Shown piece after piece: positions 10,250 through 51,249 of a DNA stretch of 64,000 bases. The position numbers and the translations under genes were made by a program. The notes below the pieces were generated by a model that saw nothing but the letters and a program-made list of their open reading frames with translations, did no database searches and was not told where the DNA came from. The number at the start of each line of letters is the position of its first letter. The stretch's first letter is position 1. This stretch comes from Stegostoma tigrinum (lineage: Eukaryota): NCBI RefSeq assembly GCF_030684315.1, contig NC_081371.1:10113441-10177440 (forward strand). Reading direction: 5' to 3'.

Positions 10250-10464
10250 ATAGCAGGAACTGCAGGTACTGGAGAAAATGAGAAAACAAGGTGTAGAGCT
10301 AGATGACCACAGTAGGCCAAGCAGCATCAGAGGAGCAGGCAGGCTGACCTTTCAGGCTGAGACTCTTCTTCAGAAAAAGGGTCTAGGCCCGAAACGTCAG
10401 CCTTCCTGCTCCTCTGATGCTGCTTGGCCTGCAGTGTTCATCCAGCTCCACATCTTGTTATCTC
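10250..10464. mobile_element. Palindromic Neptune-PLE mini-element
   Basis: Inverted arms around ~10372; 13-bp TSD TATTATTCTGCTG at 10237-10249 and 10465-10477; hammerhead 3' half gggtctaggcccGAAACGTC. Confidence 0.85.
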
Positions 10465-12021: not shown

Positions 12022-12489
12022 CTGTTGAGAAAAAGTGTTAAGATATTATGAGGACACTGATGTCATTCATTTATTTATGAAACACACTCAGCCAGACTTT
12101 CCAATTCAAATTTTCTGAAATGCTTGTTGAATATCATAACCGTTACACTACCAAATTATCCATGGGCTGTGATTTCTATGGATGCAAGTTATAATGGTAA
12201 ACTAAATAAACCTGGTACTTATTGAATAAAAACAAAAAGGGGGAATTTATGGTTACTGGCTTACTAATGCACTTCAGAGAAGTTATTATGCAGGCTCTAC
12301 CTAGTCTGGCCTATGTGTGTCTTCAGTCCCAAACAATGATCATTCTCCCCTCAGTCTCATTCAACACCAGCTTTCAGTATGTCCTGTCCCGCTATTAAGA
12401 TGGTAGATTTGACCTGGAATCATCAGTATGGTTCCAGACCTCATGAAGTATCATGGGTTAGAGTCAGCTAAAGACAGGGAAAGTACTGA

Positions 12490-12727
12490 AAATAAAACAA
12501 GAACTGCAGATGCTGAAGATGTGAAATGAACTAAAACTAAGTGCTTGAAAAACTCAGCAGGTTTGGCGGCATCGGTAGACAGAAACAGAGTTAATGTTTT
12601 GAAACCAATCATCCTCTGTCAGAACAGTTTGACATTGGATCTTTGGACTTAAAGCATTGTCTGCATTTTGCTCTCCACAGATATTGCCACTCTTGCTGAG
12701 TTCCTTGAGCACGCCCCATTTTTGTTT
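12490..12727. mobile_element. Old palindromic Neptune-PLE mini-element
   Basis: aactcagcaggtttggcggcatc...cagagttaatgtttt mirrored by ctctccacagatattgccactcttgctgagtt. Confidence 0.65.
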
Positions 12728-13249
12728 GCTCTAGAGAAAGCATTAACTAATTCTCAAATGCATGGCTCCCAAAAACATCTCTAAGTATGCATCAAGTTGC
12801 AGGTGACAATTTTCACGACTAAAAGCAAATTAGTATTACCACCACTAACCATGCTGTCCAAGTCCGAAAGACACAATAGCTGGGCTACACCAATGTGAGG
12901 TGATAAGGGATCCCGTTCAGGAATAACCTATTGAACCTTAGCTTACCAATTTTCCTCTCACAGGCATGGTTATACAGCATGATTGTTGAAAAGGCAGCAA
13001 GGGTACAAATAGTAATGGTACTCCCATGTTGATTTGGATGTCCAGAAAGGCAAATAGTCCAAACGTGTGATGAAATCTACAATCTCATTATCCAGAATAC
13101 CCTCCCAACTACATTAAAAAGTACAGAAAAAAGTCAGTTTAATGGCTACTATAAAAAAGCATACAAAGGAGCATACTTCTGTGAGCAGCTACAATACAGG
13201 AATTTCTACATGTTAAACAACATTCAGCAGATCAGGCTAACAATATCCA

Positions 13250-13620
13250 GGCAGACGGTGACATAGTGGTAATATCACTGGACTAGTAGCCCAGAGACCC
13301 AGTCTAATGTTCTGGGGACACAGTTTGGAAGCCACAATGACAGATAGTAAAATGTGAATTCAATAAAATCCAGAATTAAAAGCTAACCTAATGGTGATCA
13401 TATAACTATTGTTATAATTAACAATGTTGGTTCACCAATATCCTAAAAAAGAAAAGAAATCTGGCCTGGTATACGTAATTTTAGACCAATAGCAATGTGG
13501 TTGACTCTTAATTGCCCTGTAAAATGGCTGAGCAAGCCACTCAATTAAAAGGTGATGAGGGATGGGCAACAAATTCCAGCCTTGCCAGTAGCACCTGCAA
13601 CTTAAAACAAGAATTTAAAA
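13250..13620 (+). mobile_element. tRNA-derived shark SINE (3' tail shared with L2-like LINE)
   Basis: tRNA-like head (tagtggtaatatcactggactag) and tail gggatgggcaacaaattccagc; homologous to 60561-60910. Confidence 0.8.
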
Positions 13621-14309
13621 ATGTTCAAAACCTATGCACCAGAACTAACTTTTTCACTCTCAAAATATTCCAATGTATTGATGATTCTGGCATTCACATG
13701 CAATGTGGAAAATTGCATTGGAATACTTCATCCTCAAAAAAAAACACAAATATACCTCACCAGCTGCTGCCCTAGTAGTCTTCTCAATCATCAGCAAAAT
13801 GTTTGAAAGAGCCATGGAAATTCTCTTGGGTGCTCTGACCAGTAATTATCCCTCATTCAATGTCAAAACAAAAAGAACAGATCACAGGTCATTACAAACT
13901 TACTGTGTGAAATTTGGCTACAGTATTTCCAACTTTGTAATGCTTAAATATTTTACAATCGGGTACTTTAGGAGTATTAAGCACAAGGTGTTCTACACTG
14001 CAGTGCCACCATGTACTTATCTGCAAGCACATGACTGAATTTCCATGTCCGTTCTTAAGAATATCAGGCTCCAAAGCATCTCACTGTTTTGATTAAGGAA
14101 AATATGCAACTGCCAGTAAATTTCATCAACATTAAGAGAACAATTTATTAAGTATAGTAAAACCAATCCCGGCAAAACTGAATGCACGAATCCATTGAAA
14201 TTTCTTTAGTTGCTGCATTCAAATTTGACGCAAAAGGAAGGCATACAACATGGTTGCCGGCAGCTAACAACTGCAATCTGAGGACTTAAAGAAGTCTTGA
14301 AGAAATGCC

Positions 14310-16320
14310 CAATTTGAGTTCTGCTCTCATTACAACCTTGGTTAAAACTTAGACAAAACAGCTGAATTCCGGAGGTGAGGTGAGAATGGCTGCCCTTAAC
14401 ATCAAGACAACATTTGACTGAGTGTACCATCTAAGAGACTGAGGAAAACTAGGAGTTGATGAGAATCAGGAAGGGAAAAAAAAACACTTTGCTGGTTGGA
14501 GCCATTGGTTGCACATAGGACGAAGGTTGTGGTTGCTGGAGGTCAGTCCCCTCACCTCCAAGACATCTCTGCAGGAATTGCTCAAGAGCGTCCTAAGCCT
14601 GACCATCTTCAGCTGCTTCATCAATGATCTTCCTTCCATCATGAAGGTCAGAAATGGGAATGTTCACTGATATGATTACACAATATAAATCACTTCGAGA
14701 CTCCTCAGATATTAAAGAATTCCAAATGCAGCAAAACCTGGACAATAGTCAGGCTTGTCTAAATGGCAGTAAGGATTTACACCACACAAATGTAAGGCAA
14801 TGACCATTTCCTGCGGTAGACTATCACCTATTCCAATGCCATTCACCTGAAATCAATGGTGCTGAGGTTGAGGGTGGACAGCATTAAGTTCTTTGGAGTG
14901 ATGATAATGGACAACCTGTCTTGGACTTGTCATGAAGATGCAATGGTCAAGAAAACACAATAAAGCCTCTTCTTCTTCAGGCAGCTATGAAAATTTGGCA
15001 TGTCCACAAGGTCCCTCACCAACTTTCACAAATGCACTGTTGAAAGCATACTGTCTGTGCGCATAATGGTATGGTATGGCAACTCCTCTGCCCAGGACCG
15101 TAAAACTACAGAAGGTTGTGTGCATAGCTCAGACCATTAAGGAAGCCAAATCTCCATCCAAAGACTCCATTTACATGGACGCTTGCCACAGAAAGGCTGC
15201 CAGCATTGAAGACCCATTTTACGCCAGCAACGTTCTCCTACAACCTCTTCCGTCAGGCAGAAGATACAGAAGCTTGAACACAGACAGCAGCTGGTTCAAG
15301 AACAACTTTTTCCCCCGCTGTTATCAGACTGAGGGACTCTAACTTCAAATAATGCTGATCTTGCCTAGCGCACGCCCTGTGCAAATTTCAATGGCTCCTT
15401 CAAACATTTTGCTGTTGATTTTTTTTACCCTATGATTTGCATGCCCTTGCTTATGATGATCTGCCTGTACTGCTAATAAACAAAGCTTTTCACCATATTG
15501 AGGTGTACATTACAAATCAAACAATGGTGCTAGCATCATAAAATCCCAGAGGTTATCATTATAAATAAAGAACAATAGTGGGCTGGACACCCAGTAGAGC
15601 CTGCTCTACCATTCAGTTGGTTCCGGGTTATTCCAACATTTTTCACGTCCACTTTCCTGCCTTTTCCCATAACCCTTGGTTCACTTATTGATCAATTTCA
15701 GCCTCAAGTATGCACAAGAACTCTGCCACAGCCCTCTGTGGGAAGGAATTCAAAAGATTCTTACCCCTCAGAAGAAATTCCTGCTCATCTGTCTTAAATT
15801 CTGAGACATTTCCCTCTGGTCCTAACTTCTCCCACAAAGGGAAATGTTCTCTCAGCATTTATCCACTCTAGCCCTGAAAAAACCTATGTGTTTCAAAGAT
15901 ATCAACTCTCATTCTTCTGAACTTGAATGAGTACCATTCTGAACCGGATTTGCCACACAAACTGCAACAGAAGGTCAGAGGCTAGGAATACTGCAGTGAG
16001 CAACTCATCGCTCAACTCTTTAAAGCCTGTCCACCACTTACAAAGGCACAAATGAAAAATATGATGGAATACGCCCAACTCGCCTGGGAGAGTACGGCTC
16101 CAGCCTCACTCAAGATGCTTTACGTGAGCCAGAACAAAGCAACCCGTTGATTGTCATCTTTTCCACTAATATCCAATCCCTCGATCATGAATTTTCAGTA
16201 GCAGCACAGCATACCATCTACAAGATGCACTGCAGAAATTCACCAAAAATGCTTAGTCAGCATCTTACAAACCCACAACCACTGCTATCTAAAAAAGTCA
16301 AGAGCAGAAAATTCATGAGG
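14310..16320 (+). mobile_element. L2/Crack-like LINE RT remnant hosting nested insertions
   Basis: Degenerate RT motifs (ALNIKTTFD, IFSCFINDL); homologous to 36620-37640 and 38720-39170. Confidence 0.7.
14864..15521 (+). mobile_element. Rex1/Babar-like LINE 3' fragment
   Basis: ORF 15076-15342 contains LQPLPSGRRYRSL; tail tacaaatcaaa; 10-bp TSD CAATGGTGCT at 14854-14863 and 15522-15531. Confidence 0.8.
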
Positions 16321-16569
16321 TGCCTACCTTCTGCCCATAAATGTGACACCAAGACTCCAGTTGCCTGCTATTTCAACACACCACTGTGTTCCCAAACCGA
16401 TATTTCTGTCAGAAGCAAGCTGCAGTCTTTCAGTCAGCCTCAGCGTAAGTAGCGCAGCGTCTTACTTTTCACCTAAGGAGTCAGCTGCTTTTAGTACTTA
16501 ACAATAGGCAAAGTGCCCTTCTTTGATATTGTATCGTTCTATGAAAGCTTGTTTAAATTATATGTCACT

Positions 16570-17021
16570 ATAAGGTTTTGGAGGAGATTTGTAACTTGGG
16601 TTGTGGGTGTTGAGGTTGGTTGGCTCGCCCAGCTAGTTTCTTGTATCGCAGACGTTTCGTTACCGTGCTGGGGAACATCCTCAGTGCAGCTTTTGACGAA
16701 GCAGCGGTGTGTTTTCCCGCCTGGTTTTCAGAATCGAGTCCGTTGAGCTAGATTGCCTCACTTCCAGTTTTCCTTCATAGTGTAGTGTATATGGGGCGAG
16801 TTCAATGTGTTTATTAATAGCATGTTTGGAGTAAATTTGTAGGTTGGGTTGTGGGTATTGAGGTTGGTTGGCTCGCTGAGCTGGCTTCTTGTATCACATG
16901 CTATTAATAAACACATTGAACACAATGACGCTTCATCAGAGGCCGCACTGAGGATATTAACCAGCATGATAACGAAGTGTCTGCGACACAAGAAACCAGC
17001 TCGGTGAGCCAACCAAACTAC
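16570..17021. mobile_element. Poseidon-like PLE derivative: partial tandem plus inverted arm
   Basis: 8-bp TSD ATGTCACT at 16562-16569 and 17022-17029; two minus-strand copies of the 3' terminus and one plus-strand inverted arm; homologous to 49060-49996. Confidence 0.85.
16648..16687 (-). ncRNA. Minimal type I hammerhead ribozyme motif
   Basis: Minus strand reads GCA CTGAGGA T GTTCCC cagcac GGTAAC GAAA CGTC/TGC: intact core, 5/6-bp stem II, 3-bp stem I, palindromic ACGT stem III. Confidence 0.8.
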
Positions 17022-18045
17022 ATGTCACTCTTTCTCCATACCTCTTTCCTCTCCTTTGCTTCAACCACACTCCCATCATCTTCCTTCCTGTACACATCTC
17101 TGGTCCCTTTCTATTTTCTCTTTTGTTTGTTCCTCTAGCCAGCACTTCTGAATTGTACACACATCGCCGCCACCAACCACACCCCAAAAAAAACTACCAC
17201 CACCACCATATAGCATACCCAAATATGAACTCCCATCCTTAATATCCACCTGCTCACCTACTCCTGCTATCATCCAGGTTGCTTTCAGCTTGCTGCTCTC
17301 AGCTTTTGTTGTCACTTATTCAGCTTCTCTTCTGTCCTGGCCTGCTATCAATAATCCCCTCATTTGCCTACCCCTTTCATATCTCTGTCTCTACCTATCT
17401 GCTCACCTCTTCCGCCAAATTCATCTTCAGCATAAATATCATTTTTTCCTAGCCACTATCAGTTCTGGTAAAGAGTCACTAGACTCAAAACGTTAACTCT
17501 GCTTTCTTCCCCCAGCTGCCAGACCTGCTGAGCTTCTCCAGCAATTTCTGTTTCAGATCTCCAGCAGCTGCAGTTCTGTGCTTTGTTTCAGAGTTGTAAC
17601 TAGCAGTTTAAGTTAATAGTTCATAATTGTTTACCTATGTTTAGAATTTCATTATTTGTAATAAAGAGTTCTTGTTTCATACAAAAACCTGGTCAGTGTT
17701 TTCTGTTAAACTGAGGTAAATCGGGGACTTCAAGTACTTTGATCCTGGAAATTGTGGAGCTCGAGTATCAGTGTTCTTACTGGATCATGTCAAGACAAAA
17801 TAAGGAGAAACTGTTTCCAGTGTGACAAGATCAGTAATCAGAGGGCACAGATTCAAAGTTAATTTCTCATTTTATTCCTTTTTTTTTTCAAAGAAATCTA
17901 TTCACACAACAAGCTATAATGATTTGGGATGTGGTATCTGAAAAACCTGATGCAAGCATGTTCAATAGCAACTTTCAAAGGAGAAGTGGATACTTTGGAA
18001 GAAAAAGGTTAATTGAACCGCTCTGTCAAAAAGCTAAATCATGTT

Positions 18046-18283
18046 CAATAGGCTAAGTGTCCTTCTTTGATACTGTATCATTCTATGAAATTTTAAAAAA
18101 TTATATGCCACTTTTTCTCCATGCCTCTTTCCTCTCCTTCCCTTCAACCACACTCCCATCATCTTCCTTTCTGTACACATCTCTGGTCCCTTCCTATTTT
18201 CTCTCATGTTTGTTCCTCTGGTCAGCACTCCCGAATTGCCCTGCCCACCACCAATATATAACATACCTGAATTTAAACTCCCA
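18046..18283 (+). repeat. Local duplicate of 16503-16569 plus 17030-17226 (empty-site paralog)
   Basis: Colinear similarity (also visible as ORFs 16957-17187 vs 18034-18423); lacks the 16570-17021 insertion. Confidence 0.85.
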
Positions 18284-19169
18284 ATTAAGGAATAGGATTT
18301 CAAATATGGCGACCATTTGTCCAGCTCCCCATGTAACTTTAATATGTTATTAATGTAACATGCATCAATATACCCTACAGATTTAACAGTATGCCTTCCA
18401 CTAGCAGAACAATTATTTGGCACGAGAATATGCCCAGAAGCAATTACTCAACGTCAGAAATTTGAGCTACTGTATTGCATTTCAGCTTTGAGGGGATGAA
18501 GAGTGGGCCACAGCACTAGATGAAAGGAATGGTAACTGCAGGGTAGGTAGGAAAATGAGAGACAATGAAGTTAGGCAAATGAGGTCATGACAGATAGGAA
18601 GGAGAGAAGAAGGAAGCCAGAAAATAAAATGATCAAATTATATTTCCTACCTCTTCCCTTTAAGAGCAACCTGTTCATTCTCTATGTTTTCCCCCTTCAC
18701 TCCTCCATTCCTGTCTCCTCTCCCTACTTTGTGCAGTCCCACCTTCTCATCTCATTAGGGGTGAAGAATTAGGGAACACTGAACAGGTACAAGGCCTTCT
18801 GAATGCTCTGGCACATTGCAGGTGATACAGTACATGATTATTTGATCGTCAGTTACTCTTGAATAATTCCATTTTGTTTAAAAACAAACTGCAACATGGG
18901 ATTATAAAAGACCTGAGTGGTATGATGTCTGTGTTGGAAGTATCTTGCAAAAGACCCCAATTAAGCCAATCAATATTATGTCATCAGCACAGTCATCAAT
19001 TGCAAATACAATTTATTGCAATACAAACAATGATAGAAAGCTCTCCCAACGCTTGTTTCTGAAGCAACAGAACGGTAAAATGACTTAGAAAGAAAATTAT
19101 TTCTAATCAGATCCAAGTTAATTTATGATCCAAGGACATGCATCAATTTATTTTCTCAGAATCACATAC

Positions 19170-35659: not shown

Positions 35660-36615
35660 AATCAACAAAACAGGCTTAAGAATGAAACCTGAATGAAATA
35701 ACAATCCTCGAAAGTACACAAACCCCTCAGACCCAAAGTCTCCATGCCAGGCACACCATTACATAGATTAGCCAAGGAGCTACAAAGGAGACTAAAGCAC
35801 CTTGTCAGCAAGTCACCCCACTCAATCCACTCAGCCCAGGAGTTCCTCAATTCCGTAAAAGGACAGAAGAACAGATGACAACAAGACCATGGTGTAATAT
35901 GACATTACTGCCCTATTCACATCGAAGGACATACCATTAGTAAGAGAAACATTGACAACACTACTAAAACAAGAACAAGACCCTAGTGACACCATTTCCA
36001 TAGACAACATGCTGAAGCTACTGGACCTATGCCTTACCACCCACTTCACCTTCAATGGTCAAATATACGAACAGATCAATGGGACACTCATGAGATCACC
36101 TACCTCTGGACTAATAGCTGAGGCAAAGACTTGAAAGCATGGCCCTTCCGCTAATCTAACCAAAACAATGGATACACCATGTGGACGACACCTTTGTCAT
36201 TATTAAACGGTCTAAACTAGAGGAGACACACAAACTAATAAACAAAATTCTCACCGGAATCAGATTCACCAGAGAAGAGGAGAGGAACAAACAGCGCCCA
36301 TTCCTGGACGCCATGTTGGAACTGAGGACAAGTGGGGAATTCCTAATAAAAGTACACAGGAAAGCCACATTGACCACGTACTGAATTTCAATAGCAACCA
36401 CCATAACACACACAAATGAAGTTGCGTGAGAACATTATTTAAACGGGCAACAACGCACTGCAGCAGCACAGAGCTACGCCAAGAAGAAGAGTATCTCTTC
36501 CAAGTATTCAAAGGCAACAGATACTCAAAAAACTGGATCAAAAGATGCCTATTACATGCGCGCCCCAACACACTCCCCACACGACCTTACATCAGGAACA
36601 CAACTGAACTGGGAA
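35660..36615 (+). mobile_element. Poseidon/Penelope-like RT remnant
   Basis: Frameshifted PLE RT: LLDLCLTTHFTFNGQIYEQING, VDDTFVII, FTREEE..PFLD, LFKRATTHCS. Confidence 0.85.
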
Positions 36616-40133: not shown

Positions 40134-40347
40134 GATGATGGGAACTGCAGATGCTGGAGAATCCCAGATAACAAAGCGTAGAGCTGGATGAACACAGCAG
40201 GCCAAGCAGCATCTCGGGAGCACAAAAGCTGACGTTTCGGGCCTAGACCCTTCATCTGATGAAGGGTCTAGGCTCGAAACGTCAGCTTTTGTGCTCCCGA
40301 GATGCTGCTTGGTCTGCTGTGTTCATCCAGCTCTGCACTTTGTTATC
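40134..40347. mobile_element. Young palindromic Neptune-PLE mini-element with overlapping hammerhead cores
   Basis: Near-perfect inverted arms centred on ttcatctgatgaa; 12-bp TSD CTACCTGAGCGT at 40122-40133 and 40348-40359. Confidence 0.92.
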
Positions 40348-48450: not shown

Positions 48451-49136
48451 GAGAGAGATAAACAGAGTGAACGTTTCGAGTCCCAATGTGGCTATTCTGT
48501 GTTGCTGCTGTCACTTTGCTATCGGTACCACTAACGAATGCACTTCGACACAGAGGTGATGCTGGAACCTGAGCATCAGCCTCTTGCTAACTGTCAGTTC
48601 ATCCCCCCCTCCTCCTTTGCCCTCCCTTCTTCCCTCCTCCTCCTTTGCCCCACTTGTTAACTGTCAGTCCATTCCCCGTCTTCCTTTGCCCTTCTTCCCA
48701 CCTCCTTCTTTGCTCCTTCTTCTCTGCCCCTCCTTTGTCCCCCTTCACTCCATTTCCCAGTTCATCAGGGCCCAGATGTGCAGGATCATTTGTACAGGAG
48801 GCAGCCATCTCGCATCACTTTGGATTTATGCATTACGCTTTGTCTTTATCGGTGAGAGCGTTTTGAGCGACTGTTGCCTTAGAACAGAACTCCAAAATCA
48901 GAACATTAAAATATTTTCATTTTTAAGGAACTGACCAGGATTTATGTACGTCCTTTGGATAGTTTAATTCAACAAATCTCGAAGATTGTCAGGGTCTCTG
49001 CTTCAAGTCATGACAGTACTTCGGTCTGGCAACTAGTCATGTGGGTAATTTTGTTATCTGGCGAGTTTTGAGAAGATTTGTAGCTCAGGTTGAGGTTCTG
49101 GATGTGAGTTTGCTCGCTGAGCTGGAAGGTTAGTTT

Positions 49137-49176
49137 TCAGACGTTTCGTCACCATTCTAGGCAACATCATCAGTGA
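49137..49176 (-). ncRNA. Minimal type I hammerhead ribozyme motif
   Basis: Minus strand: TCA CTGATGA T GTTGCC tagaat GGTGAC GAAA CGTC/TGA. Confidence 0.85.
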
Positions 49177-49917
49177 GCCTCTGACGAAGCGCTGGTGTTA
49201 TGTCCCGCTTTGTATTTATCTGTTTAGGTTTCCTTGGGTTGGTGGTCATTTCCTGCATTGGTTACGTCACTTACTCTTCTTTTTCTCAGATGGGCTCCAA
49301 ATCAATGTGTTTGTTGATGGAGTTCCGATTGGAATGCTATGCTTCTAGGAATTCTCGTGCGTGTCTCTGTTTGGCTTGTCCTAGGATGGATGTGTTGTCC
49401 CAATCAAGTGGTGTCCTTCCTCATCTGTATGTAAGGATACGAGTGACAGTGGGTCATGTCGTTTTGTGGCTAGTTGATGTTCATGTATCCTGGTGGCTAG
49501 CTTTCTGCCAGTTTGTCCAATGTAGTGTTTGTCACATGATCATCTATAAAATACCTTGCAAGAACTGTGACAAACACTACATTGGACAAACAGGCAGAAA
49601 GCTAGCCACCAGGATACATGAACATCAACTAGCCTCAAAATGACATGACCCACTATCACTCGTATCCTTACGTACAGATGAGGAAGGACACCACTTTGAT
49701 TGGGACAACACATCCATCCTGGGACAAGCCAAACAGAGACACGCACAAGAATTCCTCGAAGCATGGCATTCCAACCAGAACTCCATCAACAAACACATTG
49801 ATTTGGAGCCAATCTACCACCCGCTGAGAAAAAGAACAGGAAATGACATCACCAACCCAAGGAAACCTAAACAGATAAATAGAAAGCGGGACATAACACC
49901 AGCGCTTCGTCGGAGGC

Positions 49918-49957
49918 TCACTGATGATGTTACCTAGAATGGTGACGAAACGTCTGA
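49918..49957 (+). ncRNA. Minimal type I hammerhead ribozyme motif
   Basis: TCA CTGATGA T GTTACC tagaat GGTGAC GAAA CGTC/TGA: intact core, 6-bp stem II, 3-bp stem I; predicted cleavage after 49954. Confidence 0.88.
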
Positions 49958-51249
49958 AAACTCACCTTCCAGCTCAGTGAGCAAACTCACATCCAGAATT
50001 TTGTTATCTTTCAATTTATAGCATCGTAGAAATTCAGCAATACATATTTCAGCCTCTTGAGTCTGCAATGTCTTTCTGTTCGCTTTTGTTTGGCTTATAC
50101 CTCAGCTCCATTAAACTCCCATTGCTCCATATCCACCTTTGATCCATATCCCTTGTTTTCTTTTCAAACAAACATTTCAGTCGTGAAAATTTCAGTTGAT
50201 CTGGTGTTGTCATCCCGTTGGGGAGTAAGTTCCATAATTCTGTGATCCTCTGACTACATGAATAAATTAGCAATCTGCTCTAAACTTGTGTATTTGATTT
50301 TCTTCATGTAACATCCATGTGTTGTCAATCAGTTGACACAATAACCATACAGTTGCACAGATACCTAAGCCTGTAAAATGTGCTTTCATGGCTTATGCCT
50401 AAAAAGCTACGTAGGATTGCAAATTTGAAGTTGGTGCTGGGGAATAATTCTCTGAATTCTGACTGAACAGCAGTCTGTAAGGATGGCAGCTTCTGTAACT
50501 TTATAAGTATTTTTGACAAAAAATACAGTTTTGAGACTCGTTACCAGTTTTGCACTGATGAAGATTTCTGAATGCTGGTGAAAGTGATAATTCCTCTGGA
50601 GAGAGGAGCCAGAGCCAAGGCTGCAGGACTATGGCTGAATTGGCTGTACAAGGGCTTGGCACAATATTCACAAAGCCATAGCGATAGGCATTTTTATAGT
50701 TAGGGAAGAAGTTGGGTGTTTTTGTGGTTGTAGATGTGAATCCAGGATGGTATAGTATCTTCTTAGTGCCAAAGTCAAGATTGTTTTTGAGTGGCTGCAG
50801 AGCACTCTGCAGGGGGCAGGATAAATAGCCGAAGGTAACAAGTTATATCGGAGCTCAACAGTGACATGGCTAGAAAGAGGGATGAGGTCCTGCTGGCAAT
50901 TTTTAGTAAGGTAGGAAGGTATTAAGAAGGACCTCAAAGGAAATAACATCTATTTGGAGGGTTTAAATTAACTTGGTATGAGACCAGGAAGTTGGAGGTA
51001 ACGTTAGAAATGTTAATCATAGCACAGAGAATTGGGACAGGCATAATACAAAAATAATCATGTATTTAGTGTGGTCAAAATCAAAGGAAAAGGAATAAAG
51101 CTTGTGTTTACTGTATTTGTATGTGAATGAGTGGAGCATAATAAACTCGAATTTCTGTCACAGTTGATCATGTGGCACTATGATGTTGTGATAGCAAGAG
51201 ATTAATCTCAGAAGGACAGGACTGGGTACTAAATAGTTCTTGATACAAG

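Follow-up and report, generated by a model that had tools for sequence, protein, structure and literature searches.

The locus at 16570-17016 of the window (the whole 64,000-nt stretch of Stegostoma tigrinum DNA analysed here) is a dead remnant of a Penelope-like element (PLE), an ordinary repeat for which no present-day function is predicted. It represents the decayed 3' end of a high-copy element and is bordered by a target duplication of about 15 nt. The explanation that we hold to be somewhat likelier right than wrong is a one-off insertion in which a 74-nt filler starts at the predicted hammerhead cut site because reverse transcriptase (RT) copied a self-cleaved RNA to its end. Element positions were numbered from the first base after the hammerhead GUC (+1; window 16650, minus strand), with negative numbers lying upstream in the element sense, and the repeat family to which the locus belongs was named family A. 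The order of the pieces, the target duplication, the ends near +80 and at +41 to +44, and the junction excess that the family shows at +1 were all observed directly.

Pieces of the insertion and the predicted hammerhead

The boundaries of the insertion were fixed by an empty sister copy of the site (Table 1). The two copies derive from a local duplication within the intron, of which one (16502-16569 plus 17015-17235) carries the insertion and the other (18046-18283) is empty, and they are about 89-91% alike. Exons of a gene that we take to be ZCRB1-like, going by motifs in their translations, flank the element on the minus strand, so that the hammerhead is sense to the last intron of its host gene, in agreement with the preliminary description. 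Short-read contigs from one sample, possibly the source of the assembly, spanned the junction at 16898 with no differences, and the joint at 16825 was spanned by none of the pieces listed from one sample's short-read contigs.

Table 1. Features of the insertion, its target site and its host intron (window positions)
Feature	Position	Strand	Remarks
Target-site duplication, left copy	16555..16569	+	13/15 identical to 17015-17029; 93% to empty sister site 18098-18112
Target-site duplication, right copy	17015..17029	+	self-comparison of window
Empty sister copy of insertion site (local duplication without element)	18046..18283	+	self-comparison
Last intron of ZCRB1-like host gene (presumed)	12030..19169	-	bounds approximate; flanking exons translated
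Sense piece 1, PLE 3' end: about -177 (GIY-YIG coding end), hammerhead, tail end +80	16570..16825	-	genome comparison
Minimal type I hammerhead motif	16647..16688	-	core 16684-16651; predicted cut between 16651 and 16650
Sense piece 2, tail filler, +1 (to +4) to +74	16825..16898	-	starts at predicted cleavage site
Inverted arm, first part, family -177 to -153	16896..16921	+	26/26 complementary to 16800-16825
Inverted arm, second part, family -63 to about +35	16919..17016	+	antisense to host transcript

Read on the minus strand, every part described beforehand was present: the tail to about 16825, the remnant of the GIY-YIG end, the hammerhead, and a second tail ending at 16570. Piece 1 was 85-87% identical to the best other genomic copies. 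Piece 2 (16898-16825) matched 16650-16577 at 64 of 74 positions, and the offset of these two tail copies confirmed the distance of 248 nt from cleavage site to cleavage site. The inverted arm beyond 16898 was likewise recovered; it starts at 16896, mirrors 16800-16825, and then mirrors 16613-16713 with its stretch 16919-17019 (101 nt at 80%). The hammerhead in its second part has decayed, with the GAAA core changed and helix II broken. Since 16896-16898 are common to piece 2 and the arm, a microhomology of 2-3 nt (TGC/GCA), a junction placed exactly at the cleavage site is only one reading: the tail piece does start there, but its start may be anywhere from +1 to +4. Pieces 1 and 2 both carry a rare T at +6 (present in 5 of 226 arms), which makes one donor lineage likely, and they differ from each other by 14-20%. 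The locus holds one complete 248-nt unit and one sense hammerhead only.

The core of this hammerhead reads CTGAGGA...GAAAC GTC, helix I has 4 bp (16688-16685 paired with 16650-16647), and helix II has 5 of 6 bp with one mismatch; the core pattern occurred four times in the window against 0.01 expected. The hammerhead fold lay 2.6 kcal/mol above the minimum-energy fold and was not returned by minimum-energy folding (z 0.3-0.6), and no hammerhead family came up when the window, whose motif is minimal, was scanned with Rfam. The hammerhead at 16648-16687 had been called intact, which held for the core but not for helix II or for the favoured fold. Self-cleavage after the GUC by this copy is a prediction, on which the junction excess at +1 bears indirectly.

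In the course of events that we propose, target-primed reverse transcription would have begun at +80 and ended at about -177, at the palindrome AGCATGCT. The RT may then have jumped to the tail of another RNA with its 5' end at +1, copied +74 to +1, and run off. The run-off end would have been joined through the 2-3 shared bases to an opposite-sense strand starting at -177, and this strand would comprise -177 to -153 followed by -63 to about +35 at the other end of the target. With one template jump, the 248-nt spacing becomes a by-product instead of a replicating unit, and the tail piece resembles filler from a template switch within an inverted PLE insertion of the ordinary kind.

Family junctions at the predicted scissile bond

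The 3.2-Gb genome search gave 5408 first-look candidates, of which 40 were scored, and an exact 16-nt tail anchor gave 3015 matches. Other family A copies extend upstream into GIY-YIG-like and RT-like coding sequence. In the translation of a longer natural copy (L117) we recognised what we take to be RT-like and GIY-YIG-like motifs, and the PLE clade is presumed from motifs as well. Neither Pfam searches (on the decayed pieces and on L117 read through with X) nor a sequence search of the PDB returned a relevant match, and among ESM Atlas neighbours at 0.94-0.95, PF26215 was found on 24-70% of members and PF00078 on 17%. Other traits of PLEs were seen, namely a pseudo-LTR with a minimal type I hammerhead, 5' truncation, an inverted 5' copy and an optional 30-40-nt tail. 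Copies are 5'-truncated and their arms end at +80 or at +41 to +44; the hammerhead core is intact in 22 of 29 other copies, and all helices are kept in 11 of these 29. The structure at the window locus is a one-off in that its joint is unique, and head-to-head arms are common: 22 such pairs occurred among 58 loci, with fillers of at least 20 nt in 6 of the 22 and starts at most 6 nt apart in 4. An older RT-coding fragment of family A, 76% identical to L117, lies at 35723-36608 of the window. Elsewhere in the genome (L404:498-959), a minisatellite of about six 37-nt family A tail copies stands behind a hammerhead-bearing copy, the repeats themselves being without the hammerhead.

Junctions were collected with patterns that required the tail anchor and forbade upstream family letters, so that truncated copies were selected and their truncation points were not. 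The first 100 matches listed from each of two wide samples (213 and 141 matches) were analysed by gapped profile alignment. The resulting map holds 158 distinct junctions over the 62 positions from -57 to +5; junctions further upstream (16 of 99 and 1 of 100) were left out. Among the matches listed, 15 of 158 junctions fell at +1, with 2 at -1 and 1 at +2, and 17 of 158 fell at -40. The other bins held 8 (-27 and -34), 7 (-35 and -29), 6 (-51), or 0-4. At +1, a position named in advance, 2.5 junctions were expected under uniformity (binomial p 5e-8) and 2.97 under a microhomology-aware null (p 6e-7). In 400 simulations with uniform cuts, real partners and the same scoring, +1 had a mean of 2.9 and a maximum of 10, and no bin reached 15.

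The two wide samples disagreed on +1, with 3 of 83 in the 213-match sample versus 14 of 99 in the 141-match sample among the matches listed. In a narrow whole-genome sample (38 matches, -4 to +5), which had 3 junctions in common with the 141-match sample, +1 was the top bin with 11, followed by -2 with 7 and +2 with 6. A sample anchored further 3' (32 matches, -4 to +28) had 2 at +1 and was too small to decide. Taken as a whole, +1 is enriched about three- to six-fold in family A. Flanks differ among the 23 distinct +1 loci, and their partners are mostly inverted, with ends from -1407 to +63; nine are direct joins with 0-3 nt of microhomology, and target duplications, where found, measured 9-14 nt. 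At L293, a tail-to-tail sense join at -1/+1 resembles the filler at the window locus. Junctions joined straight to the flank (8 of 43 at +1) were considered as a separate class of evidence and set aside, as a filler followed by an inverted arm was present in half of these 8.

The -40 peak (window equivalent 16690, minus strand) coincides with the 5' edge of helix I, a place without a predicted cut, and microhomology does not account for its count (null 2.8 versus 17 among the matches listed). It directly follows AG, and T precedes in 14 of 17 cases (e.g. L125, L153, L176 and L202). A splice acceptor at this place (AG at -42/-41) was rejected, since 0 of 17 junctions had a sense upstream partner and no spliced copies were seen; in Drosophila virilis Penelope, an intron is described as ending at helix I (PMC4209133). 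An equal peak with no predicted cut indicates that peaks of such size can arise otherwise, and the unexplained -40 peak is our main reason for caution on cleavage.

Two further hammerhead families served as controls. Family B (type at window 40256) has AGC at +1 instead of TGC, and its helix I comes to no more than 2 bp when the commonest letters are taken. From 100 matches listed, 90 were analysed and gave 83 distinct junctions between -4 and +8. Among these, 12 fell at +1 versus 2, 0, 3, 2 and 3 at -3, -2, -1, +2 and +3, and 9 were left at +1 after removing joins with at least 2 shared bases. Its +1 bin was not the highest, as +7 held 14, +8 held 13, and -4 and +4 held 10 each. In a wider sample of family B, 5 clean and 2 deletion joins at +1 were counted by eye among 100 rows. 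Family C (type at window 49921) has a helix I that covaries with family A. It showed no +1 peak in 14 scripted loci free of LINE interruption (0 of 14) and about 1 of 43 rows by eye, which are low numbers, and the rate of family A would predict about 4. Because the family B peak is only local and family C has none, replication of the +1 excess is partial.

Most family C matches proved to be LINE insertions. At 16 of 30 loci, the hammerhead of family C is interrupted within helix II by a LINE whose poly(A) end lies at about -13, and the same-position end was seen in over half of 100 rows listed of 1128 family C matches. The LINE, presumably L1/Tx1-like, matched zf-RVT (PF13966, E 1.7e-11), and its copies were 92-95% identical to one copy over 1.0-1.5 kb. 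It was present at L465, L467, L469, L472, L474, L478, L481-L484, L486-L490, L492, L494 and L511. At L494 and L511 the nested LINE insertions are complete, and their target duplications measure about 5-6 and 13-14 nt. This looks like a candidate for a LINE with sequence-specific targeting of a PLE ribozyme, a subject on which nothing appeared among the papers listed by our literature searches. Family C types lie at 49921-49954 and 49140-49173 of the window. Hammerhead repeats with inverted arms (families B, C and a relative) were also found at 40200-40330, 49080-50010 and 10322-10423, and their hairpins gave sub-threshold matches to Rfam miRNA families.

Since junctions of the family accumulate at the cleavage site, run-off from the end of a cleaved RNA has to be reckoned with and is probably the best explanation. 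The three- to six-fold enrichment makes it quite likely that the window junction came from a process specific to +1, and this process was probably self-cleavage rather than stalling at the ribozyme fold. The same one-off insertion could have arisen with no cleavage, the +1 hot spot then reflecting RT stalling, fraying or fold-back of the strand at helix I and the core, or TG/TGC microhomology, and we regard this as a serious possibility that we would still bet against. This accords with the equally high count at -40, where the other strand of helix I has its 5' edge, and with the lack of a +1 peak in family C, and the stretch from -2 to +8 is a near-palindrome with fold-back joins seen. Against it, the entry to helix I (+5 to +8) shows no peak, the +1 peak has a width of one base and falls on the position that had been named beforehand, and the partners of +1 junctions are scattered, unlike those at -40, where 9 of 15 antisense partners end locally (-10 to -35). 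Microhomology is suggested by the TGC/GCA common to both sides at the window locus, but the null that allows for it predicts only 3 at +1, and other TGC/GC sites (-38/-37 and -18) are not enriched. A reading with no cleavage also agrees with the dispensability of cleavage in vitro in the available text of PMC11167929.

The preliminary description had proposed that RT ran off a ribozyme-cleaved end and switched template, and a pile-up of junctions at the GTC site was to be looked for as a check. The pile-up was found (15 of 158 versus about 3), with the reservations that the samples differ, that -40 is equally high, and that other families repeat it in part or not at all; the run-off is strengthened by this excess and has stalling at the ribozyme fold as its main rival. 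The lack in the third family, the -40 peak, the mismatch of the wide samples and the 2-3 bases shared at the locus all count against cleavage. The chance that the locus is a fossil footprint of in vivo ribozyme activity is about even. We would give the same even chance to a wider proposal, in which PLE hammerheads of the minimal kind cleave in the germ line of vertebrates, the 3' product of about 80 nt, containing both RT start sites, is reverse-transcribed and inserted, and dead copies record the cut site.

The 248-nt unit and a possible insertion in two steps

It had been suggested that a non-LTR retrozyme, a tandem or circular hammerhead unit of 248 nt with its 5' end made by cleavage, supplied the template, and we now consider this very unlikely. 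It would account for the one clean 248-nt period from cleavage site to cleavage site and for the rare +6 T in pieces 1 and 2, and PLE-derived retrozymes of similar size are described in vertebrates including a cartilaginous fish (bioRxiv 10.64898/2026.07.22.740005). However, the pattern of the tail-to-GIY joint (+74/-177) had a single match in the whole genome, its own locus; an exact pattern can overlook diverged copies, so a few further diverged copies are possible, and a dispersed multi-copy family was not observed. No head-to-tail hammerhead unit was present in 59 other loci. The tail motif repeated at 234-264 nt formed no array among the matches listed (100 of 286, to contig C38), which were unrelated repeats or minisatellites or chance pairs, plus one 37-nt tail minisatellite without a hammerhead. 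A family A match of period 262 was rejected as a tandem, its second anchor being a chance occurrence in the flank. Retrozymes have at least two consecutive complete hammerheads head-to-tail, and here one sense hammerhead of the minimal PLE type and no arrays were found. In addition, the inverted arm starts at the internal joint (-177), which would be a coincidence if the joint already existed in the template; such a start is to be expected if both strands came to an end there, with the tail piece as filler, and 4 of 22 pairs are symmetric in this way. The 248-nt retrozyme is thus not supported. As far as the searches reach, the unit exists only at this locus, the outcome that was to speak against it, and the claim of a non-coding retrozyme in a vertebrate loses its support here. 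Vertebrate retrozymes are described already (PMC7229834; bioRxiv 10.64898/2026.07.22.740005).

Least probable is that two events took place, the first a symmetric fold-back insertion at the palindrome AGCATGCT and the second a later independent short tail insertion duplicating CATG: CATG does flank a 72-nt insert (16821-16824 and 16897-16900) and the pieces are as far apart (14-20%) as unrelated copies, but the rare +6 T in both (5 of 226 arms) points to one donor lineage, target duplications at +1 loci are 9-14 nt instead of 4, and the filler stops at +74 rather than at +80 or +41 to +44.

Comparison with known elements

The closest known elements are EN+ PLEs of the Penelope/Poseidon type, such as PAc of Anolis. 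In the available portions of PMC11167929 and PMC8557442, these are alike in what we take, in family A, to be an RT followed by a C-terminal GIY-YIG-type end, in a pseudo-LTR with a minimal hammerhead, in 5' truncation with an inverted 5' copy, and in two 3' ends about 37 nt apart (the "tail"). The window locus differs in being a decayed 0.45-kb remnant only, and a genome-wide junction excess at the cleavage site is not described in those portions. Partial tandems, inverted 5' copies and tails are given as the PLE pattern (PMC8557442), and in vitro two internal RT start sites were used and both target strands were extended (PMC11167929). According to the same partial text, the Anolis hammerhead cleaves only with the PLE protein and is dispensable for insertion in vitro, and no RNA-seq reads of the Anolis PLE begin or end at the hammerhead site (PMC11167929).

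Similarly, the minimal type I hammerheads of metazoan PLEs share with the window copy the core, an extra base before helix II, a long helix II, a helix I of 4-5 bp, and a palindromic AACGT replacing helix III (accessible part of PMC4209133). There, monomers are reported as inactive and dimers as of low activity, and opposite-strand hammerhead pairs 100-700 bp apart are described. The window copy, a predicted ribozyme, differs from these in its helix II mismatch and in lacking a sense partner with which it could form a dimer. Metazoan non-LTR retrozymes (PMC7229834; bioRxiv 10.64898/2026.07.22.740005, in the parts available) resemble the locus in unit size (248 nt), in a type I hammerhead and in an origin from a PLE pseudo-LTR; those of vertebrates need two tandem hammerheads. 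In contrast, the locus is single, has no two-hammerhead tandem, and is flanked by an inverted arm and a target duplication as in an ordinary PLE insertion.

[quoted passage not shown] A family-wide junction excess at the scissile bond was not found in print in our literature searches; the genomic coverage in Fig. S2 of PMC11167929 may bear on it. Whether minimal animal PLE hammerheads cleave in cells is the question that junction maps address, and the +1 excess offers a cheap genome-only test of cellular cleavage in any species with PLEs. If germ-line cleavage is true, genomes alone could map in vivo ribozyme activity family by family at single-base resolution. The 5' junctions of R2-type LINEs are set by cleavage of an HDV-like ribozyme. 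PLEs would be alike in that an RNA 5' end made by a ribozyme leaves a fixed 5' genomic junction, and they differ in that the PLE site is only 80 nt away from the 3' end, that a few percent of copies make use of it, and that it belongs to a minimal hammerhead.
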